IMG/VR virus record: IMGVR_UViG_3300029288_007050
Location: 65,157-129,156 of that record
Source: a virus
Lineage: Duplodnaviria > Caudoviricetes
Reading direction: 5' to 3' (one strand)
DNA length: 64,000 nt
Shown here: positions 3,001 through 63,476 of the stretch, one piece after another
Numbering within the stretch: the stretch's first letter is position 1
Layout: every line of letters starts with the position of its first letter
Program-made: the position numbers and the translations under genes
The notes under the pieces: model-generated
What the model was told of the DNA's origin: nothing
The model's input: the letters and a program-made list of their open reading frames with translations, nothing else
Databases searched by the model: none

Positions 3001-6000
3001 AACCCAGTAGATTTTTGAACAGATTCTATTATAGAAAATGATTCGAGGAACTTTCTAGAAGTGCTAGAAGCTGGAACTATCAAATCTACGAAGTTCACAA
3101 AATCATTGAGATGTTCGGAAGATTCTCTTGCTAGAAGATCTATTAAAGATAACTGTACTGGTATATCAAGAAACACGTTTTTCGATGGAGAATCTGTTTG
3201 CAATAGAGTAATGTTTTCGATTAGTTTTTGCAAAATGTTTGACGTGTGTAATTCTGTTATTGTCAAAACTTCAGATTTATAAAAACTGTTAAGCTTGTGC
3301 AAAGATTCAAGGAACGATAAAGTTTCTTCTAAAGATTTTCCAGTAGACTTTGATAATGTTTCTGCAAGAGATACAACTTCAGTTAAATTGCGATCGAAGA
3401 CGTTGACAGATTGTAAAAATTCTGTGATGCTAACAGCATCGGTTATTATTCTTTCAAAAGCAGACGTTCTAGCAATATTGTCTGTCAGATCAATATTTTC
3501 GAATTTTGACCGATTGAACGTTAAAACGTTCGATGCACTTTCAATCAAAGACAAAGTCTCGTCTTTAGATAAACCAAATTCTTTCTTAAATGTCTCAGTC
3601 AACATTAATGTTTCTGCTAAAGATTTAGTAGACTCTCGTTTCAAAAAAGAATCAGACAGAATTTCTAAATCTGAGAACGCTTTGAGAATTTGTTTAACTC
3701 TACTTTCTGTAATTTCAACAGATTCAGATTCTACTTTATCAACTCCTTTAACTGGATTTTCAGTAGTCGCTTCAACCATAAACGTAGATGGATACATTGA
3801 ATAAGGTGAATTCGATGCACTTCTTCTCACGTAATGCATTTCTACACCCGGCACTAATACAGACATCTCGTGAGTATTATAAGCATATTGTAATGACGTG
3901 TTAGCGTTTGTGTTATTACCAGCGTGTCCAATCAATGAAGTTGGAGCAAAAGAATGATCTAAATCTGGTGTAGTCGAAAGGTACCAACTAGATTCGGTTC
4001 CTGTTGTGCTGCTTCCAACAGCTGACTTAACGTTAATACTTGGATGTTGTATTACGAACCAGTTGAAAGTGCCGTGATCTCCACTAGAATAATAAAGCCA
4101 CTTATGGAAATGTAAATTAGTTGGAGACGTAATATACAAACGACCAAAAATAATACCAGGATTAGTGTCGTAGTTCTGCATTCGCTGATTGAAAAGAACA
4201 AATGATTTCGTCGTATCTATGCGATTGATAGTTTCGTCCATATTCTGGACTGAACCTGTCCATTGTTTTTCTCCACTTTGCACATAAGCTCCCTCCCATT
4301 CGACGACGTATACTCGAACAACTGTTTCAGACCCACCGCTACCTCTCATAAGATTAACGTTTGTAGTCGAAGTAAACTTTGCTCCAACTAGACCGCCTAA
4401 AACACCAGTAAATGAAGTTCTCATTGTTATCAAAAGAAACGCTTTAGATAAATCTACTTCAGATACCGACTGGTTGTCTTCAGTGTCAGCTGTTAAAGTT
4501 TTTTCAAACGTTTGTACTGTAAAATTACGACCAGTGATTACTTGCCAGCAATAAATTGCTGTAGTGTCTGTTGTATAAGATCTTCGAATGTATAACTGAG
4601 TATAGTATCCATCAACTTCGTTTTGCAGAGTAGCAGTCGCTAATGTTCTTGATGTTCTATAGTTATCGCTTCTAACAGATACGATTGGAAAGCTTCTTCC
4701 GACTGGCACAGGTGTAGCGAGATCAATAGTTGCAGTAGCCACTCCAGCAGATAAAGTTTGAGTGCCTCTTTGTACGTCGAATTCTTTGGGACTAAGATGT
4801 AACGCATCTATTATCTTCTTAGTCATTCCAGTCTTCCTAAGTTCTGCTAAACTTAGATTGTCAATTTTCTGTTTAGTCGATGCAGATTTAGAAGCTTCTA
4901 GTATTGACGAACTTTCATTTTTCAATATTGTAAATTCAGATCCAGTTTTTTTAGATTCATCCATAGACAAAGAATCAGACGGTGATAATTTCCAACCTGG
5001 TGTATCAAACACCCAACCAGAATTACCCGTGGTGTTGTTAGAATTGACACCTGCATACCAAGTATCTGCTGGTGTAGCAGCTGAATATGATATATCAAGA
5101 TAATCACAAGATATCTGTCCACTACCAGATTTTATTAAATTCCAAGTTCCATCACTTAATAAAGTAATCATGTTTCCAACAGTGCCGACAGCATCAAAAT
5201 TAGTAATAGTTTGTGAGTATCCACTCCAGAACCATAATGTTAAACCTGGTTCTACTTTTAAAGTAGTAATAGAATTCGAATAGAGAATATAAGCATAATC
5301 AGTACCACTAGAATATACCCAGACTGTCGGATAAGTCACTCCAGTACCATTATCATTTAAAAAAACACCAGCAGTGCCTACCAATTTGATTGTCGAAGTC
5401 CCAGTGTCTAAAGTCAAGTTACTCGAAGTTACATACCAATAGCCTAATTGCCACATTCCACTACCCATATGTATTGTGCGCGTAGATGAAGTAACCGACT
5501 GAAAGCCACCCGACAAAGTTAGATCATGATTATTAGCATCAAAAGTGCCTTCTTGATGATCGATACTTATACCGACAAAATCATCAAGTAGTTGAAAAGT
5601 CGCGTCAGAAACCAATGCTAACGTCGACACAGACACTGTGCCACCATTGCATTGAATATATCTAGTCGAACCATCTACAGGATTCATATACAAAGAAGAA
5701 GCAGTAAGATTCACACCAGAACCGAGTATCAAATCTCCAGTTAGTCTTTGTTGACTTGAACTAAAATTTAAAGTAGGCGAATTAGTGACATCAGCACAAT
5801 TCAATTTACAAATCCAAATATATTGATCTGGCATCGTCACAGTTTGACTTCCAGTCGAGAACGAATTAGCATCAAATATTGCCGTATCATGACATATAGG
5901 ATACGTAGCGCCACCACTTCCTCCAGATGAATCTGACCAATGAGCTGTATCATACCAGTATCCCGCGTCTCCAATCCAATATCTGTTAACTGGTGTCGTA

Positions 6001-29194: not shown

Positions 29195-30676
29195 TTATTT
29201 TTTGTTAATGTTTTCAATAGCAAAGTCTCTTCCCATCGTTTCAAACTTTTCTAAGAAATACTCGTCATCTTTCAATTCTACTGATTTTTTCTTGATTTTG
29301 TCTTTAACAGATTGAGGAGTTTGTTTAGCCGGTTTTTTCTGTTTATCGTATTCTTTTTTCTTTCCAGACTCGAATGCTTTAAGAGCATCCTTTTCAGTCA
29401 TTTCTTTAATTTCAAGTCCAAGTATTTCTGCAACTTCATTACTTAAATTAGTCATGAAAGAAGGAGTAATAACAGTCGGATCTTTTTTAATGATAGATTC
29501 AAATAGTCTAACAAGAATTCTTTCTGTATCTGTCTTCAAAGGCATTAGTTTTATCTTAGGATAGCTTCCGTTTTTGAAGTTCCAATCGATAAGTGGAGCG
29601 ACTGCCCATTCATTTAAAGTGTCTTCCATTGATTTCATTACAGATTGAAGCATCTGGATAATAAACGTTGACTGAGTCGTATATCCACTACCATAAGTAT
29701 AGTTATAAGTAGACTTCGATCCAAGCTGAGTAGCTTGTGTAAGAGTTGAAAGAGCGATTTGAGAATCATGATGTTCGATGAGTTTTAATACATCATATCC
29801 AGCAGAAGCTCTGTCAACTTCAAGCTCAAATCCCGCTGGCAAAGTTATTCGTGAATTTGCTCCGATCGATTCTACTGCTTCTTCTGCTTTTGAAACTTCT
29901 GTTTCTGAAAAAGGCTTGCCGAGTTTTAGAATTTTAAGACCCACTGCATCGATTTCAGCTTTCTTATGCGCTAAATAATAAAGCTTATGTTTTTTATCAT
30001 AATGATACCAAGCTGTTTTCAATATCGATTCTCCATATAAAGGATGTTTCTCTCTTTGAAAAGTAAATAATAAACTTTTTTCTGGAGGTATATCTACATT
30101 AACCGATTTATTTCCAAACGTAGCTGTTTGATGTGCTCCAAGAAAACCTCCATTTCTATCTGCTCTTAAGCGAATTGTGCTAGCGTCTCTCGGTGCTAGT
30201 TTTTTCCAACCGATTAAACCTTTATGTTTTCCTTCCTTTATAATCTGAGGTACTTTTTCATAAAAACGAAAACCTTCGAAAATCGCTCTAGTCATGTCTG
30301 CTATAATAAATGGTAGAGGAGTAGACATGCCACCGCTATATTGTGGACCCAAAAAAACAGATTCAATAAAATCTCTTTCACCGTTGTCATTTTCGCTTGG
30401 CAATATTTTTATAGGTGCAGATTCAATAGGTAGAGAAAAAAGACGCGTAATAGCTCTGACAGTACCGTCATTATCTTGCATTGTCAAATAATTGTCAATA
30501 GTAAGTTTATCTGGTCTTTCTTCATCTTCGTAAGAACCTATTGTCGCAGAAGTTCTAACACCAAGTTCTTCCATCATTTGTCTGACAGATAGAGCGGGTG
30601 CATTTCTATCTTCTCGATGTGTTCTTTTTTTGGGTTGTGCTTTGAGACGATCTGTTATGAATGAATAAAATGCCAT
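29195..30676 (-). CDS. Portal protein (DUF935/Mu gp29-like)
   Basis: FEGFRFYEK, LAPR, HPLYGESIL, IEHHDSQIA, PLIDWNF; position upstream of the protease. Confidence 0.85.
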   Translation of the reverse strand: MAFYSFITDRLKAQPKKRTHREDRNAPALSVRQMMEELGVRTSATIGSYEDEERPDKLTIDNYLTMQDNDGTVRAITRLFSLPIESAPIKILPSENDNGERDFIESVFLGPQYSGGMSTPLPFIIADMTRAIFEGFRFYEKVPQIIKEGKHKGLIGWKKLAPRDASTIRLRADRNGGFLGAHQTATFGNKSVNVDIPPEKSLLFTFQREKHPLYGESILKTAWYHYDKKHKLYYLAHKKAEIDAVGLKILKLGKPFSETEVSKAEEAVESIGANSRITLPAGFELEVDRASAGYDVLKLIEHHDSQIALSTLTQATQLGSKSTYNYTYGSGYTTQSTFIIQMLQSVMKSMEDTLNEWAVAPLIDWNFKNGSYPKIKLMPLKTDTERILVRLFESIIKKDPTVITPSFMTNLSNEVAEILGLEIKEMTEKDALKAFESGKKKEYDKQKKPAKQTPQSVKDKIKKKSVELKDDEYFLEKFETMGRDFAIENINKK

Positions 30677-30857: not shown

Positions 30858-30900
30858 ACAGACAAAAAGCTCTCCGAGAAAAGAGCTTTTTTGTCTTGTT
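30858..30900 (-). terminator. Intrinsic terminator-like hairpin
   Basis: GACAAAAAGCTCT/AGAGCTTTTTTGTC inverted repeat downstream of 31014-31319. Confidence 0.55.
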
Positions 30901-31571: not shown

Positions 31572-31648
31572 AAATTTTAAAAAATATGATTTGAAGAAAA
31601 TAATAGTTTGTTAAAAACAGCAGTCAAAATCTATGTCTCAGTTATTGT

Positions 31649-31987
31649 TTAATTAATTGCTTCTTCTAAAGAAGTCTCAGTTATGTGTTCAGCTTCTTCA
31701 TCAGACACGACTAATTCGTAATCACCGAGAACAAGAGTAGTGATGTGGCTCAAAGTGTCTGCGACTTCGTTGCGAATTAAATCTTTGATCGACTTTTTTT
31801 GCGTACATTCTGGAAAAGATGCATCTATAATCGTTAAAATTCTTCCAGCTAAAAATCTTATTTGAGAAGAAACAGCTTTACCGGAAAGAGATTTTTCGTC
31901 CATTTTCTCAGCAAATTCTCCAGTTGATATTGTTTTTTTGACTATACTTTGACTTTTTTCTCCAACTTTACCAACTTTGTTTGACAT
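31649..31987 (-). CDS. Hypothetical protein enclosed by an inverted-repeat stem
   Basis: 112-aa ORF flanked by arms 31603-31627 and 32011-32035. Confidence 0.7.
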   Translation of the reverse strand: MSNKVGKVGEKSQSIVKKTISTGEFAEKMDEKSLSGKAVSSQIRFLAGRILTIIDASFPECTQKKSIKDLIRNEVADTLSHITTLVLGDYELVVSDEEAEHITETSLEEAIN

Positions 31988-32083
31988 TGACTTATTAACG
32001 TTGACTCGACTTGACTGCTGTTTTCAAAGAACTATGTTTTTACAAATCATTCTCTAAAAGTTGGAGTCAGAATTAGTAGTTGT

Positions 32084-32548
32084 TTATCTTTCGTCTATGT
32101 CTGACGAATTTCTAACGACCTTTACTAATTCGTAAGCAATAATATTGTTTTTGATTCTTTGCCAAGTTCTTTCAGAATAAGAACCATCAGCTAAATCATT
32201 TCCTCTCAACCAGTCTTCACCAGCTCTTGATTTTCTAACAGAAGATGCACAACCAAGATAACCATTATCACCACTTCTCGGCTGCAGCATGTTGTCTGAA
32301 TCTTTAGTGATAGATTCTCCGCTATCAGGCAATTGTGCTCTAAGCGAATAGTAATGTTCTTTTGTGAAGATTTTCAAACGAATTTGTCCTTGTTTATAGT
32401 CAGAAATGAAAATAAAATCTTCAAATTTTCCAAAACGACTAATTTCTTTAAGCCAATTTGTTAAATCCGGAAATTCTTTGAGAATTTCTAAATTCCATTT
32501 TGGCTGATGTTTTCTAGCAACATCGGGCACTTCTAACGGTTTTGACAT
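32084..32548 (-). CDS. Hypothetical protein enclosed by an inverted-repeat stem
   Basis: Likely start MSKPLEV at 32548; arms 32051-32069 and 32569-32587. Confidence 0.7.
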   Translation of the reverse strand: MSKPLEVPDVARKHQPKWNLEILKEFPDLTNWLKEISRFGKFEDFIFISDYKQGQIRLKIFTKEHYYSLRAQLPDSGESITKDSDNMLQPRSGDNGYLGCASSVRKSRAGEDWLRGNDLADGSYSERTWQRIKNNIIAYELVKVVRNSSDIDER

Positions 32549-32604
32549 TGTTTTTTTTATACCGTTCATGACTCCAACTTTTAAAGAACTATTTGAACGA
32601 AATT

Positions 32605-32749
32605 GTTCTCTGAAGCAGAGACACAATAATGCCGAGTCGACGGCAGACTTAATTCATATTGGTTCCGTCTCTGCTGTTGGCGGTTGACTCATAAAGAGTC
32701 GTAAACCCTCTTAAAGAACCTATCTAATTATGTCTCTTCTTCAAAGAAC
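32605..32749 (-). ncRNA. Stem-enclosed structured RNA candidate
   Basis: GTTCTTTGAAGAAGAGAC/GTCTCTGCTTCAGAGAAC closing stem around ~105 nt containing hairpins. Confidence 0.45.
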
Positions 32750-33006
32750 TATTTTTTAGTATTTATATATATTTTTAAATCGACTATAGCTTCTTTAATC
32801 GTTTTGATGTCTCCCCTTACTTCTCTCAGATCTTCACAGAATTTATTATAATGATTATTTAGCTGAAGATTGATTTCAGCTAATTCTTTTTCATAATTAA
32901 CTAAAGCATTGTTGTTTTTTCTTGACTTCATGTAGTCAAAAATCTTCTGAATCGCGAAAAGAACAACGACAGCTAAAGCACCAAGATTTGCATATTGTTC
33001 GACCAT
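32749..33006 (-). CDS. Membrane-anchored coiled-coil protein (holin-like)
   Basis: N-terminal TM segment followed by heptad-rich tail. Confidence 0.6.
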   Translation of the reverse strand: MVEQYANLGALAVVVLFAIQKIFDYMKSRKNNNALVNYEKELAEINLQLNNHYNKFCEDLREVRGDIKTIKEAIVDLKIYINTKK

Positions 33007-33036
33007 ATCAAAATAAGGTTAAGTGTTATTAATTTT

Positions 33037-33065
33037 ATTTTACTACTTTATTTTTCTTTTGTAAA
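33037..33065 (-). promoter_or_regulatory. sigma70-like promoter
   Basis: TTTACA-17-TAAAAT on the minus strand. Confidence 0.5.
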
Positions 33066-34497
33066 ACGCGCACGCTTTTCAAAGAAGATGCCGTCTAGAG
33101 ATTTTTTGAGCCCGCCGCTATTTTTTTGAATAAATTAATTTTTCGCTCTAGAAAAAATTTATCGCGCTGAGATAGAGTTGCTGTCTTTGTCTGGCAGAGA
33201 TTCTCTTTATCTGCTTCAAAGGGTGTTGCCATATCTTACCACCTTTCGAATACACTTTTTTCTACGCAATATAGAAGAGATCCTATGAGGCGTCAAAATG
33301 AGCTAGTTTTTTTATTACGAAACAAATGTGGAGAAAGTAAAGGAATTCCTTTACAAAAAATAGAAGTGTGTTGTAGTAAGCAGGAACTTATTATAAAACA
33401 AATATGGTAAGATGTAAATGTTTACAAATGCCTTGAGATGTTATGAAATAAGCTGAGATATTATTACGATACAAACAAGAAGATACGTAAAGGAATAGAA
33501 TATCAAATAAAAAATATAGATTCTTTAATCTAGAGACGTAAGCACGCTAGCGAAAGAGACGAGCGCAAAAAGTAAATGTGAAGATAGTTTAGCAGAAGTT
33601 TTATTTCGTACTCGCAGAATCTAAGAGAGAAAAAGCTACTGACTTTATTCGTAAAGAATATCTTTAACAAAAATAAAAATCTTTCAAATAATGAGAATCA
33701 AGACTAGCGACGAGTTAGCGAAGGATAAAAGTATTCTCGTGCGATATGCTCGAATAGTCTGGTGAGTCTTCGGAAAAAATCCTGTGAGACTCGCGTGTGT
33801 TGAAAGAATCAAGCGCGATTAACGAGTGCGAGCAGAGTAAATCATAAGAAACTTGCGATTGCTCTAGTGCAAATGCTTTAGATATTATTGATTATTCATT
33901 TATATAGTATATTGTTTGTCTAGCAGCGTTCTAGACACTCGAGCGCATATTGTAGATAGCGTTCAGAGCTTGGTTTCTCATTCAAGCTGATAGTTTATAT
34001 GGTAAAATAAGAAAGACTTTAATACTTATTACATAACATTCTGGCGCAAATGTAAATAGTAAATGTGTGAGAAAACAATTCGAAGCGCCCTTAAAACGCC
34101 CAGCAGAGAGATAAAGTCTCTCTCAGAGCGTTAGAGAGCGTTTAGCTTGCTCTAGCGTACCACGCTCTGCCATATCTAAGCCAAGTAAAGTCTCTTATCC
34201 ATATATTCTATCAGCTCTGCTATCAATATCTAAAAGTCTCTACGAATCAACTTATTACAAAACATTCGTGCGCAAAAGTAAAATATCGCTTGAGAGCTCA
34301 GTCTTTTAAAGAAACTGACATAATATCACTAGAGACTTGCTTTCTCTACAAAGCGTTATATGAACTCTAGCGCCTACTCCAGAATGCCTATCTAAACGCT
34401 TTCTAAGCCTTGAAAAACAAGAGACTTGATGTCTCCTATTACTCAAAAATGAGCTCTCTACAAACGGTGTAGCGCAAAAGTTATTAACAGTTAGACC

Positions 34498-34525
34498 TTT
34501 ACAATATGGTATGATATGGTATTAT
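34498..34525 (+). promoter_or_regulatory. Early promoter driving the cassette array
   Basis: TTTACA-16-TATTAT with TG extension; upstream AAAAGTTATTAACAG shared with the 43260 promoter. Confidence 0.7.
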
Positions 34526-34654
34526 AAAAATAGGAAGAACACGGCTGTTAACAACTCGGGGGACTTCATCCAACCTTGTGAATATCCCTCGCCCCAACTG
34601 AACGAAGGATGGCAAAAACGCATCGCGGTCAATGAGTGTACTTTGTCAACAAGT

Positions 34655-35143
34655 ACTGGAGAGATATTCTGGAACTTGATGAAATGTTATCCCTAAAAAA
34701 TAAAACACTTTTATGGAAAACATTACTCAAGTAGAAAACTTATCGTTCAAAATCATCGACGAAGTTAAAAAAGACATCAAGGAAATCGTTCTCAAAAAGA
34801 ACAACGGGCGATGCGACAAGATAATTTTCGAAATGCCCAAAATATCTCAAGCTCAAATAGATAAAGCTTACAACGGCAAGCCCGGTTGTATGTGCGGGTG
34901 TCTCGGAAAATACTCAGTTCTGAAATCTTCTAAAGAAACTGAAGAACTCGGTGAAACAGTTTCGCCTCGCTCAGTCAATTTCGTTTTAAACAAATTGATT
35001 AAAGAAGCTAAACGCGGAATTGAAGTCATCGGAGACTACATTTACTTGATGGACATAGAAGATAGGCGCTACGCCCTTTATCTAAAAAAATAATCAACTA
35101 ACTAAGATAACATTTGCATTGAGTTTCAAAATATCTCTCCAGT
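34655..35143 (+). repeat. Cassette 1 inverted-repeat stem
   Basis: ACTGGAGAGATATTCTGGAACTTGATGAAATGTTATC / GATAACATTTGCATTGAGTTTCAAAATATCTCTCCAGT. Confidence 0.95.
34713..35093 (+). CDS. Hypothetical protein (cassette 1)
   Basis: 126 aa with a GKPGCMCGCLGKY motif. Confidence 0.75.
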   Translation: MENITQVENLSFKIIDEVKKDIKEIVLKKNNGRCDKIIFEMPKISQAQIDKAYNGKPGCMCGCLGKYSVLKSSKETEELGETVSPRSVNFVLNKLIKEAKRGIEVIGDYIYLMDIEDRRYALYLKK

Positions 35144-35249
35144 CGCTAAGAATATAACGAAGAGTTAGAATAGAACGGGGAGTGTTAGATAATAACACTC
35201 GGTGAGGGGAAAATCTAACAGAGGGGTTATTATTCTTATGCAAATCCAA

Positions 35250-35539
35250 CACCGGAGAGATATTCTGGAACTTGATTGTAAACCTTACTAAAAAATATGT
35301 ACAAAATCCTTCAAATCAGTTTCGTAATTTTAGCACTCGTTGGTTTCATATTCGCGATGAACTTCGGAATCAACAAGACTGAAATAAACGAATGCAACAA
35401 GTGGAACAAAGAAGCTAAAGAATATACTGGTTATTACTTTACGCAAAATCAAATTGACCAGTGCGACGCGCACGAGATTACGTTAACGTTAAAATAAAAT
35501 ATCATTAAAACAATCAAGTTTCAAAATATCTCTCTGGTG
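35250..35539 (+). repeat. Cassette 2 inverted-repeat stem
   Basis: CACCGGAGAGATATTCTGGAACTTGATTGT / ACAATCAAGTTTCAAAATATCTCTCTGGTG. Confidence 0.95.
35297..35497 (+). CDS. Small membrane-anchored/secreted protein (cassette 2)
   Basis: N-terminal hydrophobic segment and two Cys. Confidence 0.75.
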   Translation: MYKILQISFVILALVGFIFAMNFGINKTEINECNKWNKEAKEYTGYYFTQNQIDQCDAHEITLTLK

Positions 35540-35639
35540 AAGAGACACTATCAGACTGCGACTGGTACAATCCCCAGAGCAGCGCACTCGAACTGAAGTG
35601 TAAAGAATGCGAAAGCATCTCTCAAAAATAGAGTGTTTA

Positions 35640-35924
35640 TCTTGGCAAGGCATTCTGGAACTTGAAGTTAGAAACAATAGATATGCCAAAACTATCTGAA
35701 GCAGAACAATTTATAATTGGCCAAGCAATGGCTGAAATCAAAAAAGAAAAAGACGTTTCTATCGTCAGAGAAAAAATCTTAGGCACTGTAGTCGGCGTTA
35801 ACAAAAAAGCAGTCAAAATCTTTGATGAATTAGTCGCATCGAAGAGAAAAGCAGGTTTAATAACCTGACTCAAACAATTTAGAATTAAATATCTAACTTC
35901 GAGTTTCAAAACGCCTTGCTAAGA
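35640..35924 (+). repeat. Cassette 3 inverted-repeat stem
   Basis: TCTTGGCAAGGCATTCTGGAACTTGAAGTTAGA / TCTAACTTCGAGTTTCAAAACGCCTTGCTAAGA. Confidence 0.95.
35683..35868 (+). CDS. Hypothetical protein (cassette 3)
   Basis: ATG at 35683 (MPKLSEAEQ) lies inside the stem. Confidence 0.7.
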   Translation: MPKLSEAEQFIIGQAMAEIKKEKDVSIVREKILGTVVGVNKKAVKIFDELVASKRKAGLIT

Positions 35925-35926
35925 AT

Positions 35927-36350
35927 CTAGAGGGAGAATCTGGAACTTAAGTCTCTGAATGTTCTACAACAATGCAAAAACTCTTAAAATATAGAAAAAA
36001 TAAACGTGACATTACAATCGGTACTTCGTTCGCGAATTTATCTATCAATACAAATCTTGATAGACTCGTCGAACTTCTGGGACAAGTTTCTTTTCTTGGC
36101 TCGGGAGACGACAAAGTTCAATTAGAGTGGGCTTTCTACAAATCTCCAACAAGAGTCTTTACAATTTACGACTACAAAGAAAACAAGCCAATCCACGAAA
36201 TTACTGACTGGCACGTAGGCGCAAAAGGTTTTGATAGAGAAGAGATTGTAGACGAGCTCCTAAAAATCGGTTTTACGAAAGACGAAATCGTCTTAGAGAA
36301 TTAAAATTAAACATCATATTCAGAACTTGAGTTTCAAATTCTCTCTCTAG
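35927..36350 (+). repeat. Cassette 4 inverted-repeat stem
   Basis: CTAGAGGGAGAATCTGGAACTTAAG / CTTGAGTTTCAAATTCTCTCTCTAG. Confidence 0.95.
35972..36304 (+). CDS. Hypothetical protein (cassette 4)
   Basis: 110 aa with DDKVQLEW..FTIYDYK..WHVG. Confidence 0.75.
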   Translation: MQKLLKYRKNKRDITIGTSFANLSINTNLDRLVELLGQVSFLGSGDDKVQLEWAFYKSPTRVFTIYDYKENKPIHEITDWHVGAKGFDREEIVDELLKIGFTKDEIVLEN

Positions 36351-36363
36351 TAAAAACACTTTG

Positions 36364-36755
36364 AGTGCTCGTCGGTGAGACAATCTGGAACTCAATAGAC
36401 TCGTCTGAAATTCTACAAATTTATGGTTCTAAAATTGACTTTAACAAAACCTATCAACGGCTACTGGGACGGCGGACCAAAACAAGTCTTCAATTACTCA
36501 ATTGACGGCGAAGTCCAGAGAGATTCCAAAGGGCAATACGTAAGAGTCGGAAGCTGGGAAGCAAATTCTTGGTTTCACGTCGCTGTCGGTAAAACAGTGA
36601 AACAGACTCTAGCAAACGCGAGACGCCATCTTCTCGCTGGTTTAAACAAGATGGCGAAAAGCCAGCTCATTGGCTACAAATTTGAGTACGTCGAATAATT
36701 ATAATTAAAAAAGACGACGAAGTTGAGTTTCAAATCGTCTCACTGAAAGAGTACT
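36364..36755 (+). repeat. Cassette 5 inverted-repeat stem
   Basis: TCGGTGAGACAATCTGGAACTCAA / TTGAGTTTCAAATCGTCTCACTGA. Confidence 0.95.
36423..36698 (+). CDS. Hypothetical protein (cassette 5)
   Basis: 91-aa ORF filling the loop. Confidence 0.75.
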   Translation: MVLKLTLTKPINGYWDGGPKQVFNYSIDGEVQRDSKGQYVRVGSWEANSWFHVAVGKTVKQTLANARRHLLAGLNKMAKSQLIGYKFEYVE

Positions 36756-37297
36756 AAACTAGAGTGCTAGTAGAAAGTCCAGATAGTCTTCTACAAAAAA
36801 GTGCATTGCAATTATAGCTTCTCAACAAATTTCATCACTTTGCTTTCGCGCTCGTCAATTCTTAACAGAATTGTATGAAGATAGAAAGCAAAAAATGAAG
36901 CAAACCGCAGCCTCTACGACTTTCACGCTAGAAGCGTTCGAGCTCGTTCTCAGAAAAGAACAAATCTTCCGAAATCGCAATTTTGAGCTCTAAAGCGTCC
37001 TGGAGACGAACGCTAAATCAAAAGACAAGGTGTAAGAGAGCCAGAGAGAAGGTTTTAAGAGAGAGATGAAATAAACCTCAGCTAAGAATCAGAGAGATTC
37101 TAGAATGTTTAAAATGAGAATCAGAGTCTTCATCTTACTAATTTTCTTTCTCTTTCTTGAGAGCTATTACTATGATAAGCTTAGAGATGGATAGATGCAA
37201 TACAATTTGCATTTACTTTCGTCCGAGCTCTGTTCAATCTTGCAGGGCATCGTTAGAAGGACAATCTGGAACTCGAACATAAGCTCTAACTACAAAA

Positions 37298-37462
37298 ATG
37301 GAAAAACAAAAAGAAGACATAACAGTTGCTTACAATATCTTTTCAAATGGTAGAATCGTAAGCAGCTTTGAAGTTTCGGGCAAAGACGAAGATGAGTGTC
37401 AAGAGAAAGCCGAACAAGAATACGATGACTTCGTATCTAGTCTCAGTCTAGAAGAAGAGTAA
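37298..37462 (+). CDS. Small acidic protein (cassette 6a; not in ORF track)
   Basis: MEKQKEDITVAYNIF...VSGKDEDECQEKAEQEYDDFVSSLSLEEE*, 54 aa. Confidence 0.7.
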   Translation: MEKQKEDITVAYNIFSNGRIVSSFEVSGKDEDECQEKAEQEYDDFVSSLSLEEE

Positions 37463-37475
37463 AAAACTTACTTCT

Positions 37476-37670
37476 ATGACTACATACCTCGTCCCAAAAA
37501 TACCTGGTGTGCCCATAATTAAAATGGACAAGAAGCGAATAAGAGAATTGAGAAAAATTCTCCGCTCCGGCCAGGAAGTTCATTGTTTAGATATGCCTTC
37601 GTATCTAGCAACTCTCCAACAAGCAATTGAAATCGGAGCAACAAGCAAAATCGTCAAAGACTTCGCATAA
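37476..37670 (+). CDS. Hypothetical protein (cassette 6b)
   Basis: 64-aa ORF. Confidence 0.65.
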   Translation: MTTYLVPKIPGVPIIKMDKKRIRELRKILRSGQEVHCLDMPSYLATLQQAIEIGATSKIVKDFA

Positions 37671-37733
37671 CATTTTATATCATTAACAATTTAGAGTAAA
37701 ATTCGAGTTTCAAATCGTCCTTCTAACTTAAAA

Positions 37734-38018
37734 GCTTAGAAGACAGTTCTGGAACTCAAGAGTACACAAAACGATGCAAATAACAACTATCGTTGTATCT
37801 GACAGCGAATACTTTTCATTCTTTCAATATCCTTCTTACGAAAAAGCGTTTAACAAAGTAAAAGAATACGAAGCGATGGGATACGAAGCAAAAATCGTTA
37901 CGAACTATCCAATCGAAAAATCAAGTCGAGAAGCATATCAAAAATTCGCTCCATCTGGCGAATTTATAGATTAAATTAAAATTAACTTATTCTTGAGTTT
38001 CAAAACCGTCTTCTAAGC
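37734..38018 (+). repeat. Cassette 7 inverted-repeat stem
   Basis: GCTTAGAAGACAGTTCTGGAACTCAAGAGTA / TATTCTTGAGTTTCAAAACCGTCTTCTAAGC. Confidence 0.95.
37774..37974 (+). CDS. Hypothetical protein (cassette 7)
   Basis: 66-aa ORF filling the loop. Confidence 0.7.
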   Translation: MQITTIVVSDSEYFSFFQYPSYEKAFNKVKEYEAMGYEAKIVTNYPIEKSSREAYQKFAPSGEFID

Positions 38019-38043
38019 AGAGGAACTATAATTGCAGTGCACT

Positions 38044-38900
38044 GCAGTTAGAAGAGCATTCTGGAACTCGAGGAGCTCATAATAAAATGAATGAACTTAT
38101 CGAAAAAATTAAAAAACCCGATAACTTCAACTTCTATTATATGCAAAGCATTAGAGGTGAAGACGGGATTGAGCACATTCGAAAAGAAAAGGCGCGCTAT
38201 TTTGTCACACAAGATGGCAGAATAGCTAGATATGCTAGACGATTGCATAAACGTGGTTATGCTATAGATGATTTGAGCAGAATCATAGTTGAAGACAAGA
38301 AAAGAATTAAGACTCCAGAACAAAAATGGAACGAAAGCTGGTTTAAAGTTTCAAAGAGGTTAGAAAAATCTGGCCTCTATGAAGACTTGTTAAAGAACGT
38401 ACATCTTGGTTTAGAGATTGGATATGAAAAAATCCAATTAGCTTACAATTTGTACTGGGAAGATGATAAGAATCTCAGCTACGTCGAAAATCAGAAACGA
38501 AGAGACGAGGAAATCAAAAATCTTGATGAAAGACTTTTGATAGACAGCCATCCGAATACTGAAATCATCTGGTATATGAAATATCCTGCCAAAGTTAAAA
38601 AAATGAATTTTGGCAAACCGAGATGGGATGACGGTTCGACTAACAAAGAAAAACTTCAGCTCATCGCAAAAGCGCTCAAAGAGAAAAAAGAAGTATCAGT
38701 CGGTGGTCGAAATGGTTACGATATTTCATTCTCGTACAATCCAAAAATAAACAAAGCGTGGTATTCTGAAGAATACAGAGGATGCGGAAACGGCCATTAC
38801 TATCTTGCATTAGATGCAACTCACGCTTTATTTTACGAGGATGATTAAAGATTATTAACTAACGAGCAACCTTCGAGTTTCAAAACGCTCTTCTAACTGC
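38044..38900 (+). repeat. Cassette 8 inverted-repeat stem
   Basis: GCAGTTAGAAGAGCATTCTGGAACTCGAGG / CTTCGAGTTTCAAAACGCTCTTCTAACTGC. Confidence 0.95.
38087..38848 (+). CDS. Hypothetical protein (cassette 8)
   Basis: 253 aa; C-terminal AWYSEEYRGCGNGHYYL. Confidence 0.8.
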   Translation: MNELIEKIKKPDNFNFYYMQSIRGEDGIEHIRKEKARYFVTQDGRIARYARRLHKRGYAIDDLSRIIVEDKKRIKTPEQKWNESWFKVSKRLEKSGLYEDLLKNVHLGLEIGYEKIQLAYNLYWEDDKNLSYVENQKRRDEEIKNLDERLLIDSHPNTEIIWYMKYPAKVKKMNFGKPRWDDGSTNKEKLQLIAKALKEKKEVSVGGRNGYDISFSYNPKINKAWYSEEYRGCGNGHYYLALDATHALFYEDD

Positions 38901-40396
38901 GTCGGAAGAGTATTCTGGAACTTGAAAAAGCTACAAACAATCTATGAATTGGTTCGAAGTATCAAAAGAAGGATTGAAACAGCTTCAGTTAGGAAAACCT
39001 AAGCATTACGTTGCTAGAGAGCTAGTACAGAATGCTTGGGATGAAAACATCAAAGTCTGCAAATTCGTGTCTCTCTGGGCAAACGGCGTAGCATCTATCT
39101 CAGTAGAAGATGATAGTCCCGAAGGCTTCCGAAATCTCCGCGATGCTTTCACATTGTTTGCGCCTACTTACAAACGAGCAAATCCTGAGAAAAGAGGACG
39201 TTTCAATTTAGGAGAAAAACAAGCTCTCGCAATTTGCGACAAAGCTAAATTAGAAACAACAAAAGGAACTGTTCTGTTTGAGAAGACGAGCCGAACACAA
39301 AGCTCCAAGAAAAGAGATGCTGGAAGCAAAATATCTGTAGAACTGAAAATGTCTAAAACTGAATATGAGGAAATGCTGGAGATAGTTAAAAACTATCTCG
39401 TACCAGAAAACATAGAGTTCTTAGTAAACGGAGAAAAGATGAAGTTTTCAAAACCTTTCAAATCAATTAGGGTTTCTTTACCCACTGAAATTGAAGAGAA
39501 TGGTGTTCTAAAGAAAACTCTCAGAATGGCTGATGTCAATATCATCAAATCAAACGGGAAAACTTTTCTTTATGAGATGGGAATACCCGTCGTAGAGATT
39601 GAATGTCAATTTGGAATTGATGTTCAACAAAAAGTACCCCTTTCGATTGATAGAGACAGCGTTCCACATTCCTACATATCTATTCTCTATGCTGAAGTTC
39701 TCAATGCTACATACGAAGAAGTAGATGAAGAAAATTCATCTCAAGTTTGGGTCAGAGAAGCAACAGGACACAAAAGAATTATTCCAGAAGCTGTGAAATC
39801 TATCGTCAATAAAAGATACGGTGACAAAGTAGTCGTTGCGAATCCATTCGACCGAAATTCAATTGATGACGCAATTTCAGCTGGTTATAAAGTTATCACT
39901 GGAAACGAATTATCAAAAGAAGAATGGTCGAACATCAGAGAATCAGAAGCAATTAAATCTTCTTCTGATTTGTTTGGTTCTGGTACAACTTCTTCAACAC
40001 CGTATGAAGCTGACGAGAATATGAAAGCAGTTGCAAAATTAGCAAAGAAGATAGCAAAAAGATGTCTCAAAATCGACATCGCTGTCCAATTTGCTAAATG
40101 GAGTGGAGTTAGTGCACAATATGGTAGCAGAACTCTTACTTTCAACGTTCAATCGTTGGGAAAAGGATTCTTCAAACCGGCGTTGTCAGCCAACACTTTA
40201 GATTTGATTATCCACGAAATCGCTCACGAACACGGACAACACACAGAAAAAAGCTATCAAGAAGCAATCACAAGAATTGCTGGAGAATTAGTTATCATCG
40301 CGTTAGAAGAGCCAAAGTTTTTCGATTGCACTTAGTCGACGCAATCAAATTTATCATTAACTTAGCTTCTTTCAAGTTTCAAAGCGCTCTTCTGAC
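38901..40396 (+). repeat. Cassette 9 inverted-repeat stem
   Basis: GTCGGAAGAGTATTCTGGAACTTGAAA / TTTCAAGTTTCAAAGCGCTCTTCTGAC, ~1.43 kb apart. Confidence 0.93.
38944..40335 (+). CDS. GHKL (HATPase) ATPase fused to an HEXXH zincin-like domain
   Basis: RELVQNAWD, VEDD..GF, RGRFNLGEK; C-terminal IIHEIAHEHGQH. Confidence 0.8.
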   Translation: MNWFEVSKEGLKQLQLGKPKHYVARELVQNAWDENIKVCKFVSLWANGVASISVEDDSPEGFRNLRDAFTLFAPTYKRANPEKRGRFNLGEKQALAICDKAKLETTKGTVLFEKTSRTQSSKKRDAGSKISVELKMSKTEYEEMLEIVKNYLVPENIEFLVNGEKMKFSKPFKSIRVSLPTEIEENGVLKKTLRMADVNIIKSNGKTFLYEMGIPVVEIECQFGIDVQQKVPLSIDRDSVPHSYISILYAEVLNATYEEVDEENSSQVWVREATGHKRIIPEAVKSIVNKRYGDKVVVANPFDRNSIDDAISAGYKVITGNELSKEEWSNIRESEAIKSSSDLFGSGTTSSTPYEADENMKAVAKLAKKIAKRCLKIDIAVQFAKWSGVSAQYGSRTLTFNVQSLGKGFFKPALSANTLDLIIHEIAHEHGQHTEKSYQEAITRIAGELVIIALEEPKFFDCT

Positions 40397-40398
40397 TA

Positions 40399-41275
40399 AA
40401 TTCGGAGAAGTATTCTGGAACTTAAAAGCAGGACAAAACAAATGAAGAAAAAGTATCAATTAGCATTGAGTCATACGACTGACTTAGAAGCGAAAAACGA
40501 ACAAGAAGCAGTGAAGAAGTATTTTGAGTCAATTGCGCAAAACAATATGGACTTAGAAAACTTCATAACGTCAAATCTTAAAATTGATAGAGCTTTTTTA
40601 GCTAGTCAACTTTCAGGTAAAGCGTTAGATAAAGTTCTCGAAGATAATTACGGTATCAATATTGAAGATGACTTCGGTTCAGTCAGAGATAGAGACGAAG
40701 CTCCATTCTTAGATATTGAAGCATTCGGTCTAGAAATCAACGAGAATCAGATGTCTTGGAATCTTGATTATCCAAACAGACAACTCTTCTTTACGTTTCC
40801 CCACGATGGTTCTGGAAGCAGACAGATAGGAATTTGTATCACGAACAAAAACAAACTAGTGAAAAAGCTTCAAAAAGATTTGAAACTACCAGAAAGAATT
40901 GCGAAAGCAATGAGAAACGAAGACATCTCTTTGAATTTCAGAACACAGTATTTCGGGGGAGGGGATGGAAGAACATACTTCGAGTTTTCTGACAACACTG
41001 AAAAAGGAATCCTTGGTGTCACAAGAGTTGATGGAATCAAGAACGTAAAACTAATCTATCTCGAAGAAAAACTTCAAGAATGGTTCGACGAAAATATCGT
41101 GAATCGTTTATTGAAGACATTTCAAGCAACCTATGATTATCTTACGTCGAAAGATGCAATCATAGAAACGTTAGACGCTAACGAGTTTATGTTTACGAAA
41201 GACGGTCATCGTCTGTAGACAAACATTATCAATTTAACTTCCTCGCTTTTAAGTTTCAAAATGCTTCTCTAAATT
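40399..41275 (+). repeat. Cassette 10 inverted-repeat stem
   Basis: AATTCGGAGAAGTATTCTGGAACTTAAAAGC / GCTTTTAAGTTTCAAAATGCTTCTCTAAATT. Confidence 0.95.
40442..41218 (+). CDS. Hypothetical protein (cassette 10)
   Basis: 258 aa; C-terminal YDYLTSKDAIIETLDANEFMFTKDG. Confidence 0.8.
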   Translation: MKKKYQLALSHTTDLEAKNEQEAVKKYFESIAQNNMDLENFITSNLKIDRAFLASQLSGKALDKVLEDNYGINIEDDFGSVRDRDEAPFLDIEAFGLEINENQMSWNLDYPNRQLFFTFPHDGSGSRQIGICITNKNKLVKKLQKDLKLPERIAKAMRNEDISLNFRTQYFGGGDGRTYFEFSDNTEKGILGVTRVDGIKNVKLIYLEEKLQEWFDENIVNRLLKTFQATYDYLTSKDAIIETLDANEFMFTKDGHRL

Positions 41276-41717
41276 GATTGAGTAGACATTCTGGAACTTG
41301 ATGTACAGAAAGCAAAAAACAAATCCTATGAAGTTATTAACAAAAGAAATCATCAAAAGATTTGCTGAAGTCGGAAGTCAAGAAAACGAGAAAGACCCGA
41401 TTGTCATTGCAAAGTTCTTCAACCCGACGGGAGCAGGAACTTGGTATGCTACAGAATACGACCCGAAAGAAAAAATCTTTTTCGGATACGTTTCAATTTT
41501 CGGCGACCACAATGACGAATGGGGTTCTTTCTCATTAGAGGAATTAGAAAACGTCGAATGCAAAGCTGGTTTAAGTATTGAACGTGACTTACATTGCGGA
41601 GAGCAAAAGATAAGCGAGTTTAATATCCCATCATTGCGTTCATAAAAAATAAAAATCTAACGCTTTTTCTATCTAGTCGGATAGAAGTACTTCAAGTTTC
41701 AAAACGTCTGCTCAATC
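41276..41717 (+). repeat. Cassette 11 inverted-repeat stem
   Basis: GATTGAGTAGACATTCTGGAACTTGATGTAC / GTACTTCAAGTTTCAAAACGTCTGCTCAATC. Confidence 0.95.
41328..41645 (+). CDS. DUF2958-like protein (cassette 11)
   Basis: MKLLTKEI, KFFNPTGAGTWYATEYD, EWGSFSLEEL, IERDLH. Confidence 0.8.
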   Translation: MKLLTKEIIKRFAEVGSQENEKDPIVIAKFFNPTGAGTWYATEYDPKEKIFFGYVSIFGDHNDEWGSFSLEELENVECKAGLSIERDLHCGEQKISEFNIPSLRS

Positions 41718-41718
41718 G

Positions 41719-42352
41719 TTGAGTAGACAATCCGGGACTTAAATGAGAAAACAAATGCTTATCCAACTTTATCACGGCACTAACAACAATAACGCAAAAC
41801 GAATTCTAAAAGAAGGTTTCAAAGATAGAATCGAAAGCAAAGAGAAAAACTGGAAAGACGAAATAGCAAGCCAACCTGGTTTCGTCTATCTGACTCGTGC
41901 TTATCCATTTTTCTACGCGATGAATGCTGCTAACTCAGAAGATGAAGCAACAGTATTATTAGTTGAAGTCGACTCAGATGACTTATATCCAGATGAAGAC
42001 TTTCTTAGAGAAGTTCGCATTAAAGACAAAGATAAGAAAATCGACATCAGAGAGTTCAAAGAATACGGTTCGTTATCTCTTGAAAAACTTGGAAATGTAG
42101 CAATCCAGCCTTCGAAAATCAAACGCGTAATTGGCAGTAAATCTTTTAAGACGAGTGATATGATATGGTATAGCGACCCAGCAATGTCTATCTATAACTA
42201 TATGTTTCTGGGAAACTATTACCGAGAACTGACAGACACGTGGTGGAAAGGCGGAGACTGGAAAAAAATAAATCAAACAGAATCATTATTAAAATCGATG
42301 AAAAGGTCGAAGAAATCTTAACGCTCATTTGAGTTCCGAATTGTCTACTCAA
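41719..42352 (+). repeat. Cassette 12 inverted-repeat stem (compensatory core changes)
   Basis: TTGAGTAGACAATCCGGGACTTAAATGAG / CTCATTTGAGTTCCGAATTGTCTACTCAA. Confidence 0.95.
41755..42321 (+). CDS. ADP-ribosyltransferase-fold protein (cassette 12)
   Basis: LYHGT...ILKEG...GFVYLT...YA...VLLVEVD..DLYPDED. Confidence 0.6.
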   Translation: MLIQLYHGTNNNNAKRILKEGFKDRIESKEKNWKDEIASQPGFVYLTRAYPFFYAMNAANSEDEATVLLVEVDSDDLYPDEDFLREVRIKDKDKKIDIREFKEYGSLSLEKLGNVAIQPSKIKRVIGSKSFKTSDMIWYSDPAMSIYNYMFLGNYYRELTDTWWKGGDWKKINQTESLLKSMKRSKKS

Positions 42353-42395
42353 AGTAAGACGGTTATCCTGGAACTTAAGAACAGTATTAAAATCT

Positions 42396-42614
42396 ATGAA
42401 TGATATCATTCAAATTCCAATTGCTCATCCAAAATGTCATTTGGATGAATTGCGTAAAAAATTCAACGTGCCTGAAAAATACACTGACGAAGTGTTGCTA
42501 CAGGCGCTCGTAGGCATCGTCATTGATGACTATATGAATGTAGAAAAAATCGAGGCCGACAATCTTCAAGAAGTATTAACAGACGGCAAAATCGCCGACA
42601 GATATTTATGTTAG
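42396..42614 (+). CDS. Hypothetical protein (cassette 13a)
   Basis: 72-aa ORF. Confidence 0.7.
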   Translation: MNDIIQIPIAHPKCHLDELRKKFNVPEKYTDEVLLQALVGIVIDDYMNVEKIEADNLQEVLTDGKIADRYLC

Positions 42615-42745
42615 AAAAAACAATTGACGAAGTAATAAGCGACTTGATTCAATCATTCGATGACGAATTGCAAAATCTGACAAATGAAGAACTTGAAGAG
42701 AAGTACGAAGAAAGAATGGGAGAGGAAGTAAAAATCATCGCTTAA
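42608..42745 (+). CDS. Small acidic protein (cassette 13b; not in ORF track)
   Basis: MLEKTIDEVISDLIQSFDDELQNLTNEELEEKYEERMGEEVKIIA*. Confidence 0.65.
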   Translation: MLEKTIDEVISDLIQSFDDELQNLTNEELEEKYEERMGEEVKIIA

Positions 42746-42913
42746 TCAAAAAATAATTCTTAACGTCTGTTTCTTAAGTTCCGAGACAGCCGTCTTACGT
42801 AGAAGAGTCAAAAAGCTAGATAGATGAAATAATACAGAGACTGCAAGAAACAAGCGCTCTAGAACGCTATCAGAGCCAAGAGAAATCAAAGAGCTGAGTA
42901 TTATATCATAGCT

Positions 42914-43204
42914 TCTGAACTACTTTCTGGGACTTTTAATTCTGGTTAAGAAAAATGAAAAGAAAACTATTACATCTTAAATCTATCAAGACTCTAAAGT
43001 CATTAGAAAAAAATCTCAAGCAAAGATACGATGGTGTCGAGAAAAACATCAAGAAACTAGAAATCAAAAAAATAAAAATCTGGCAAGACATTAAAAACGT
43101 CGAAAATGTTATTGCTAAAAAAGAAGAATGAGATATTTTTAGTCGTCTATCTCAAAACATTATCAACTAATCACCAGAATTTGAGTCTCGCAAAGTAGTC
43201 CAGA
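42914..43204 (+). repeat. Cassette 14 inverted-repeat stem (degenerate)
   Basis: TCTGAACTACTTTCTGGGACTTTTAATTCTGG / CCAGAATTTGAGTCTCGCAAAGTAGTCCAGA. Confidence 0.75.
42955..43131 (+). CDS. Small basic coiled-coil protein (cassette 14; not in ORF track)
   Basis: MKRKLLHLKSIKTLKSLEKNLKQRY...AKKEE*, 58 aa. Confidence 0.6.
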   Translation: MKRKLLHLKSIKTLKSLEKNLKQRYDGVEKNIKKLEIKKIKIWQDIKNVENVIAKKEE

Positions 43205-43259
43205 CGAAATGATAAAATACATATTCTGAACGCTAAAAAGTTATTAACAGCTCAACCTA

Positions 43260-43287
43260 TTTACAAGGTGGTTGGATATGGTATAAT
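43260..43287 (+). promoter_or_regulatory. Early promoter
   Basis: TTTACA-16-TATAAT with TG extension. Confidence 0.8.
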
Positions 43288-43464: not shown

Positions 43465-43739
43465 GTAGTTCTCTAAAATCTGGTGTAGCATAATAACCCT
43501 AGACGGGTAATGCATATAGTGGACAACGTCATTACGATAGAATATGACGTAATCATATTCTTGAGAGTTAGGCGATAAGGAGTTGCAAATCCAAACTCAC
43601 ACGAACAATATGAATTAAAAACCTGCCACTATAATTAAGAGCTAAGAACTCGGTCTAATAAACTACTCAAGGGCACAAGGCAGAAGCTACGGTCATTCCA
43701 GCATCTGTCTCAAGGCCCCACCAGATTTTAGGGAATTAC
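43465..43739 (+). ncRNA. Stem-enclosed multibranch ncRNA candidate B (~275 nt)
   Basis: GTAGTTCTCTAAAATCTGGTG / CACCAGATTTTAGGGAATTAC; internal helices TATAGTGG/CCACTATA and ACGTCAT/ATGACGT. Confidence 0.6.
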
Positions 43740-43753
43740 GAAATAGCATTAAA

Positions 43754-43843
43754 TGATGTTCTCTTCAATTAAAGTATTTGTCCCAGGCTAAGTCATATAA
43801 TAATTGCTGGTGAGAACAAATACTTTAACTAAAGAGAATGTCA
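43754..43843 (+). ncRNA. Long hairpin / processing-stem candidate C
   Basis: TGATGTTCTCTTCAATTAAAGTATTTGT / ACAAATACTTTAACTAAAGAGAATGTCA. Confidence 0.55.
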
Positions 43844-44803: not shown

Positions 44804-44818
44804 AGACGTTTACAGCTA

Positions 44819-44847
44819 TTTACAAAGACTGTAATATATGGTATAAT
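44819..44847 (+). promoter_or_regulatory. Early promoter
   Basis: TTTACA-17-TATAAT with TG extension. Confidence 0.8.
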
Positions 44848-44862
44848 AGAAATATAATCATT

Positions 44863-44974
44863 AGTTCTTTTCAAACAGTAGGTCAGAGCGTCAGCCTCTC
44901 GCCCAAGTAGTAGGGTAGACGAAATGAGTATTAGACTGATGGCAACACTACTCGCCTACTGTTTAAAAAGAATT
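44863..44974 (+). ncRNA. Stem-enclosed leader RNA candidate
   Basis: AGTTCTTTTCAAACAGTAGG / CCTACTGTTTAAAAAGAATT with a C-A mismatch. Confidence 0.55.
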
Positions 44975-44975
44975 A

Positions 44976-45407
44976 TTGACAAATATGAAATATCCGCACA
45001 TACCCAAAAAACTACAGAGAAATCAAAGAATTCTTACAGATGAACAAATCAAAGAAGCTAAAGAAATGCTTAAAGACGGTAATAGTCAAAGATGGGTTGC
45101 AAAACATTTTAAAGTTTCCAGAAGTTGTATTGTTAGACATTGCGTTCCTGGAATGAAAGAATACTTTCAAAGGAAATCAAGAGAGTGGGACATAGAACAT
45201 CCCAATGAAGCTGCAAAAAGAAGAGCAACACAAGCATTGCGTACTTATCATCTTTTAAGCAAGCTGTATCCAAAGAAGATGAAACAGATAAGAAAAGAAA
45301 GCAAAGAAAAAACAGGTAAAGAGTATTTCAGACTTAAACAAAAAGAATTCAGAAAAAGACATCCAAAATACTGGAAGAAATTCTATAAACTAAAAAAGAC
45401 GATATAA
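44976..45407 (+). CDS. HTH DNA-binding protein
   Basis: LTDEQIKE...GNSQRWVAKHFKVSRSCI. Confidence 0.7.
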   Translation: MTNMKYPHIPKKLQRNQRILTDEQIKEAKEMLKDGNSQRWVAKHFKVSRSCIVRHCVPGMKEYFQRKSREWDIEHPNEAAKRRATQALRTYHLLSKLYPKKMKQIRKESKEKTGKEYFRLKQKEFRKRHPKYWKKFYKLKKTI

Positions 45408-49716: not shown

Positions 49717-49947
49717 ATGATGATAACTTGTCCAATCTGCAAAAAGAAGTTTTTAAGACATTCGGTCAAACTGCATATCATCAATGCAGCAAAAGGTGAA
49801 GCATATCGAGGAATGGTGAACCTTCTAAGAATAGCAAAAAACAAACCTTATCATTTCAGTCCAGCAGTTATGTTAAGACAAATGCCTCACCTTGCTTTCA
49901 TTCGGAGAAATATGAGAACGAAACAGTTTTTCAAAATAGACTTCTAA
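49717..49947 (+). CDS. Zn-finger hypothetical protein
   Basis: CPICKK...HI. Confidence 0.55.
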   Translation: MMITCPICKKKFLRHSVKLHIINAAKGEAYRGMVNLLRIAKNKPYHFSPAVMLRQMPHLAFIRRNMRTKQFFKIDF

Positions 49948-49951
49948 GGTA

Positions 49952-49980
49952 TTTACAAATATTGTATAATATGGTATAAT
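49952..49980 (+). promoter_or_regulatory. Early promoter (leaderless start follows)
   Basis: TTTACA-17-TATAAT; ATG 6 nt downstream. Confidence 0.8.
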
Positions 49981-51825: not shown

Positions 51826-51841
51826 AATGCTTTTATAGGTA

Positions 51842-51870
51842 TTTACAAATACAGAGATATATGGTATAAT
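51842..51870 (+). promoter_or_regulatory. Early promoter
   Basis: TTTACA-17-TATAAT with TG extension. Confidence 0.8.
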
Positions 51871-63460: not shown

Positions 63461-63476
63461 TAATAGTCTAAGGATA

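Follow-up and report, generated by a model that had tools for sequence, protein, structure and literature searches.

Known boxA elements shield non-coding transcripts from Rho, as in rrn operons and CRISPR arrays. In the tether model of rRNA synthesis, NusB binds boxA and thereby keeps the leader at the polymerase until the trailer has been made (PMC10250234). Long-range pairing of the two ends of a message has been described for the Bacillus subtilis hbs mRNA, whose 5′- and 3′-UTRs pair over 14 bp and thereby affect nuclease access (PMC5737220), and the PeSL cassettes of T4-type phages consist of direct repeats with an early promoter and a terminator hairpin (PMC2839356; PMC4122927). Here we describe three consecutive phage units, called A, B and C below, which resemble each of these systems in part. 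They lie in a 64-kb window (the whole stretch of 64,000 nt that was analyzed), which is the second half of an IMG/VR record of 129,156 bp with 34% G+C. The reading that we favor, and to which we give about an even chance of being correct, is that the units are portable rRNA-like modules, in which a boxA would recruit the host Nus complex and a closing helix would be the stem for processing and end protection by host RNase III.

The structural genes of the phage, including those for the major head protein, the portal (29195-30676, minus strand) and a giant protein with a lectin domain, are read on the minus strand, starting near 33.0 kb and ending at base 3. A divergent non-coding region of 1.6 kb (33010-34650) separates them from a plus-strand block; its largest ORF is no longer than 46 aa, it contains a 33-nt repeat in three copies (33386, 34024 and 34250) and further short repeats, and it may hold regulatory sites, an origin or non-coding RNAs. 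A palindromic hairpin that is terminator-like on both strands (30864-30891), a perfect stem of 10-12 bp flanked by A and T runs, lies between the cassettes and the portal gene, and relatives have other hairpins at the same position (L124 4483-4550 and L127 5536-5629).

We found no close cultured phage, megablast of the 28-46 kb region against cultured phages giving no match. The phage DNA is present in landfill and groundwater metagenomes, and no RNA run among the public runs contains it. The bins that contain relatives identified by their portal genes are labeled Bacteroidetes, Saccharibacteria, Nanoarchaeia, Woesearchaeota and Gammaproteobacteria; these labels are mutually inconsistent, and the relatives in them are most likely mis-binned phage contigs. 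Only 7 of 119 start codons have a Shine-Dalgarno sequence, and A at positions -3 and -6 is Bacteroidota-like, while the Bacteroidota promoter motif TAnnTTTG (the -7 motif) is not enriched in the phage (180 vs 171). The host signals thus conflict, with translation signals that are Bacteroidota-like and canonical -35/-10 promoters that point elsewhere.

A strong promoter consensus occurs in 17 copies genome-wide, all of them on the plus strand. It consists of TATTTACAAA, about 13 nt and ATATGGTATAAT, and so contains a canonical -35 (TTTACA) and an extended -10 (TGGTATAAT); examples are at 43250-43287, 44810-44847, 49940-49980, 51830-51870 and 63465-63505. For the leftward operon, a consensus scan predicts a sigma70-type promoter at 33037-33065 on the minus strand (-35 TTTACA, a 17-nt spacer and -10 TAAAAT). 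It is some 30 nt upstream of the first leftward ORF, and is weaker than the 17-copy consensus and of the same type. No T7-type polymerase gene was found in the phage, and together with the 17 predicted sigma70 promoters this indicates that host polymerase transcribes it. The phage genome likewise has no RNase III gene, so any cutting by that activity would be done by the host enzyme, and it has no tRNA-splicing endonuclease gene. It does encode an RtcB RNA ligase (G000:32670-33806, L139; E = 4e-113). A cut-and-ligate scheme that yields circular RNA is very unlikely, since RtcB does not accept the ends that RNase III leaves.

Units A, B and C and their closing helices

An earlier note on this DNA had described three consecutive minus-strand units, each enclosed by inverted arms, and all three are present where it placed them, with arms slightly longer than it gave. 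They extend from 32754 to 32600 (A), 32595 to 32043 (B) and 32041 to 31597 (C), do not overlap and have one product each, and their arms are 26-31 nt long. Between 31000 and 33500 three stems score at least 17, compared with a mean of 0.08 in 300 dinucleotide shuffles.

Unit A follows directly on the first leftward ORF, which encodes 85 aa (32749-33006, minus strand). The boxA-like motif of the unit (32751-32740, minus strand, within the 5′ arm) opens with the TAG stop codon of that ORF (32749-32751), so that a terminating ribosome would sit on the motif; in the related contig L124 the TAG stop of the homologous ORF likewise opens the unit A motif (3425-3427). The arms (32754-32727 with 32627-32600, minus strand) are 28 nt long with 24 Watson-Crick and 2 G·U pairs, and the 3′ arm (32600-32627) is kept in L124. 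They enclose a non-coding insert of about 100 nt without an ORF (32628-32726, minus strand), which has a fold z-score of -6.1 and no Rfam match. The insert carries a second boxA-like copy near 32719 as well as an inner copy of the arm, AGCAGAGAC, which is an alternative pairing partner for the 3′ arm.

The arms of unit B (32595-32569 with 32069-32043, minus strand; 27 nt, 24 Watson-Crick and 2 G·U pairs) enclose an ORF of 161 aa (32569-32084, minus strand). The boxA-like motif is at 32591-32580 on the same strand, and the 5′ arm ends on the A of the ATG. The protein matches no family. Its homolog in L125 is also enclosed by arms, with compensatory change, and the flanking stems are absent from L001-L003, which encode distant homologs. 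Unit C has arms of 31 nt (32041-32011 with 31627-31597, minus strand; 26 Watson-Crick pairs and 1 G·U pair) around an ORF of 112 aa (31987-31649, minus strand), and its motif, with core GTTCTTTGAAAAC, lies in the 5′ arm at 32034-32023 (minus strand). Rfam searches at gathering and E-value thresholds returned one tRNA and chance matches, and nothing else.

Two other roles were considered for the arms and rejected. They are not terminators, being 100-500 nt apart with no U-run after them, and translational masking fails as a general role, since only the arm of unit B touches a start codon.

Relatives were collected by means of their portal proteins (54-86% identity). Upstream of the portal gene and on its strand, L124 has units A and C, L125 has unit B, and L126 and L130 have unit C. 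When the four orthologous unit C cassettes were aligned, RNAalifold recovered the closing helix unaided; 94.6% of the cells of this alignment pair, compared with 35-54% when the partners are slid, five pairs have changed on both sides, and the covariation score was reached by none of 500 shuffles. Across 12 units of the clade the helix spans -4 to +22 relative to the G of the motif, and helix positions 12-17 are paired in all 12, with three to four pair types each. In being long-range, 21-28 bp in most units (about 20 bp or more being expected) and subject to compensatory change, the helix is of the leader-trailer type. In metagenome DNA contigs of close relatives, the arms of units A-C are unchanged, so that these strains add no covariation at the population level.

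The two strands of the helix are constrained differently. All 12 units have GTTCT(T/C)T on the 5′ strand, and the bases that pair with it vary by wobble, G being matched by C or T and U by A or G; constraint thus acts on the sequence of the 5′ strand, and on the 3′ strand only as its partner. On the minus (sense) strand there are five G·U and one A·C in units A-C, as the earlier note had said of the wobble pairs, and its further observation that the asymmetry flips with the direction of transcription agrees with the plus-strand array described below, which is biased on the plus strand outside its conserved mismatches. When 25 units were scored without favoring G·U, 39 G·U and 21 A·C were counted on the sense strand (p = 0.027). 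This asymmetry is a real but moderate sign that the transcript pairs. The RNA-level role proposed in the earlier note is therefore upheld by covariation among orthologs, by the bias of wobble toward the sense strand and by conservation of the motif on the 5′ strand alone, and the closing RNA helix very probably exists.

The boxA-like motif

All three 5′ arms were said to begin with one motif, and TAGTTCTTTRAA indeed occurs exactly three times in the 64 kb, each time at the outer end of one of these 5′ arms. Units A and C carry its core, GTTCTTTGA, unchanged, and unit B differs by one base (GTTCTTTAA). We compared the core with 16S loci of Bacteroidota, taken from genomes of the phylum to which a MAG titled 'uncultured Bacteroidetes bacterium' belongs. 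There GTTCTTTGA is found 85-220 nt upstream of 16S in 10 of the 12 loci listed (two pairs of which are apparent duplicates) and again in the 16S-23S spacer, shortly before 23S. In several of the sampled 16S operons it forms the outermost 5′ part of the helix between leader and trailer; L149, L150 and L158 have it paired with the trailer, and in L146/L147 it is looped out between two helices. Among leaders of Patescibacteria, the phylum of the Saccharibacteria MAG, G(T/C)TCTTT(G/A)A is present in 4 of 16, and a Mollicutes 16S-23S spacer primer that is used in several papers starts with the same 12 bases as the phage motif. The earlier assignment of the motif to the boxA of rRNA leaders and spacers thus finds matches in sampled Bacteroidota, in some Patescibacteria and in Mollicutes spacer primers, and the expected likeness of the arms to rRNA leader stems was found, in sequence and in placement, in sampled Bacteroidota, which may not be the group of the host.

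The phage motif has the boxA core, is in the sense orientation and lies downstream of a predicted sigma70-type promoter. Judged by sequence comparison, it is boxA-like both in sequence and in placement. The arms do not stand out in a scan with a weight matrix built from rRNA boxA sites, whose flanks are GC-rich. The motif itself is a short, T-rich one, and coding sequence rich in Lys and Glu often contains its reverse complement. The 16S leader of L161 (G001:C422, 1100-1510), from a Bacteroidetes MAG that has a related phage contig, carries two promoters of the TAnnTTTG type and a variant boxA, GTTCATAGA, and the phage contigs L181 and L188 have a similar sequence, GTTCATTA, in their arms.

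Other units, cassette families and exchange

A genome-wide stem search gave further boxA-type units, in which the motif again lies at the outer end of a sense-strand 5′ arm. On the plus strand, arms at 43465-43485 and 43719-43739 enclose a 233-nt non-coding insert (unit 43465-43739), a unit at 43754-43843 has 28-nt arms and a 34-nt loop, and a unit at 44858-44979 has 26-nt arms around a 70-nt non-coding insert (44884-44953). The last of these starts about 10 nt after a consensus promoter whose -10 ends at 44847. In the other half of the genome, a unit at genome positions 5225/6148 encloses an ORF of 266 aa. Four of the seven boxA-type units enclose non-coding RNA, which in rrn operons and CRISPR arrays is what boxA shields from Rho.

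The non-coding inserts at 43486-43718, 44884-44953 and genome 6882-6924 (L168 2383-2425) are closed by long stems, with fold z-scores of -5.7 to -6.8, and none of the three has an Rfam match. The words CAATATGAATTAA...CTGCC are common to the 233-nt insert and the insert of unit A, and the element at genome 6854-6952 has a hairpin with a UUCG cap.

In a second and much larger set of units, the plus-strand array at 34655-43204, genes are enclosed by stems in the same way, and the core, TTCTGGAAC, is an unrelated one that sits at the inner end of each helix, so that boxA is not needed for the design as such. The array has a C·A mismatch and a G·U pair at fixed positions of the core, most of its units also keep an A·C mismatch 3 nt further out, and outside the fixed positions G·U far outnumbers A·C on the plus strand. 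A scan of IMG/VR with 14-mers of this core gave only single chance matches.

The unit C gene allowed a wider comparison. A search with an alignment of its protein gave 16 more contigs with a usable homolog, and in all 17 (different IMG/VR contigs, 22-77% protein identity) the gene lies inside a helix. This helix is 14-28 bp long and close to the ORF, 8-25 nt upstream of the ATG and 8-22 nt downstream of the stop codon. Its middle differs in nearly every one of the 17 contigs with complementarity kept, and in about five of them the boxA-like motif is degenerate and the helix retained.

The presence of the helix in all 17 cassettes and of the motif in only about 12, the closeness of the helix to the ORF and the use of another core in the plus-strand array would all fit a helix that does nothing more than join the untranslated 5′ and 3′ ends, for which hbs is a precedent (PMC5737220). 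Such a helix would govern nuclease access, stability or translation with Nus factors uninvolved, and the motif would be just the outer portion of that helix, or else be bound by another, possibly phage-encoded, protein. We consider this rather unlikely. It does not account for a core identical to that of rRNA boxA in two units of three and one base off in the third, for a placement of the motif relative to the helix as in the sampled 16S operons, or for conservation of the motif on the 5′ strand only. It also leaves aside the enrichment of the motif directly downstream of promoters, where it is found within 45 nt of 4 of the 17 strong promoters against 0.9 expected.

The unit C protein has a conserved core, G-K/R-x-L-T-I-I-D-A-S ... 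Q-x-K-A-x-K-D-L-I (31649-31987 and L169-L189), and has no relative in Pfam, PHROG or PDB. Its AlphaFold model is a two-helix hairpin (pLDDT 66) whose tails at both termini are of low confidence. Its N-terminal region is rich in lysine, and a conserved leader of the AGTCAAGT type lies between the 5′ arm and the ATG of unit C-type genes. Together with the fact that gene and helix are inseparable in the 17 contigs, these last two features are what one might expect of an operator confined to type C units, in which the encoded helical protein binds its own closed RNA or the leader and either regulates its own synthesis or serves as an antiterminator of the phage in the manner of lambda N. The N gene of lambda lies behind nutL. 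We give this explanation very little credence, as the protein resembles no RNA-binding or antitermination protein that is known, its predicted fold is a simple helical hairpin at modest confidence, and the same type of helix closes units A and B and the non-coding units, none of which has the unit C gene. The protein family may nonetheless be tied to the RNA element.

No such units are present upstream of the portal gene in L127, L128 and L134; they are thus cassette-linked and not essential for the late operon. How cassettes come and go can be seen in part from the relatives. Metagenome contigs of close relatives lack entire plus-strand units, and the joints fall precisely at the arms (37727 joins 38020, and 38898 joins 40402, the second joint being seen in two studies). 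Mosaic breakpoints adjoin units A and C (31572-31575, 31674 and 32772), and in L126 the arms around a unit C-type gene are similar to the unit B arms. With the PeSL papers as precedent (PMC2839356; PMC4122927), these observations would fit an explanation at the level of DNA, in which the arms are repeats for cassette exchange and RNA pairing is a by-product. Such exchange needs similarity between cassettes, whereas the middles of the helices differ between cassettes and stay complementary by double changes; moreover, the wobble bias tracks the sense strand, and the arms are inverted and not direct repeats and come without a promoter. As the main explanation for the arms, we find it improbable. 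It can, as a secondary effect, be compatible with a role in RNA: the shared cores probably act as recombination points also, by analogy with PeSLs, which would still leave the covariation within units unexplained.

A possible mechanism and comparison with known systems

Under the reading that we favor, of rRNA-like modules served by host Nus factors and RNase III, host RNA polymerase would start at the sigma70-type promoter near 33.04 kb and run leftward, and the nascent RNA would expose a boxA-type motif, UAGUUCUUURAA, at the start of each cassette. Host NusB-S10 would bind the motif and, with NusA and NusG, form an antitermination complex of the rrn type, which would resist Rho on RNA that is untranslated or poorly translated. 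The same complex would keep the 5′ arm near the RNA exit channel until the 3′ arm emerges 100-500 nt later, when the arms would pair and a helix of about 26 bp, the part of this scheme that covariation shows, would close the cassette. Host RNase III might then cut the helix and release a non-coding RNA or a single-gene mRNA with paired, nuclease-protected ends. Such a cut would sever the boxA tether, which would explain why every cassette has a boxA of its own, and the arrangement would parallel the second boxA before 23S in rRNA operons. The modules would move with their accessory genes and be gained or lost as blocks at the arms. Counting against this reading is that boxA is itself base-paired once the helix has formed.

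We would extend the proposal to a general rule only tentatively, with distinctly less than even confidence. The rule would be that phages carry accessory genes and small RNAs in self-contained mini-rRNA cassettes, every one of which has its own boxA and its own leader-trailer helix. If so, and with the same reserve, Nus loading might let the insert be transcribed without polarity and the helix might provide excision and end protection. Equally tentative is the corollary that such cassettes could be inserted anywhere in an operon and exchanged at their arms. The rule appears to be undescribed, and our literature search found no paper that describes a boxA-plus-stem cassette design in phages.

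If the proposed mechanism is true, phages reuse the cell's machinery for rRNA transcription and maturation (Nus factors and RNase III) for ordinary genes, cassette by cassette. This would explain how long operons can take up accessory genes with no polar effect, how polycistronic RNAs give rise to single messages and why cassette borders coincide with the arms. A boxA plus a co-varying long-range helix would then be a simple sequence rule for finding processed phage RNAs, and the modules would be portable insulator parts for synthetic operons.

Each of the known systems shares some features with these units. As with PeSLs, short conserved motifs stand on both sides of accessory genes, and the insertions and deletions that distinguish close relatives have their borders there. 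The units differ from the direct repeats of PeSLs in that their flanks are inverted, co-vary within a unit and lack a promoter. With hbs they share the long-range pairing of both untranslated ends of an mRNA; hbs is a single cellular gene without boxA, whereas the phage helices are about 26 bp, repeated and portable, with a conserved 5′ motif.

The RNase III sites of T7 and T3 are also duplexes between the cistrons of a polycistronic phage RNA and are also served by the host enzyme. Those of T7 are local hairpins, while in the units described here the strands are 100-500 nt apart, enclose a cistron and have a boxA at the 5′ side; the plus-strand units at 43754 and 44858 are nearer to the T7 kind. 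The nut sites of lambdoid phages resemble the units in being boxA-type phage signals placed early in an operon of host polymerase. They differ in that no short boxB hairpin is present here, the motif running straight into the long-range helix, and in that the neighboring ORFs include no match to the N-like protein family.

The leader of the rRNA operon is alike in having the core GTTCTTTGA at the 5′ outer limit of a long-range helix around the product, in having one boxA per enclosed product, and in a helix long enough for RNase III. It differs in that the phage products are small genes or RNAs of 70-230 nt and not rRNA, in that the phage helices are shorter and simpler, with no boxB or boxC identified, and in that the phage has several tandem units that are gained and lost as cassettes. 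By analogy, then, the phage design may be regarded as a variant of the rrn boxA with its leader-trailer helix and of phage RNase III sites.
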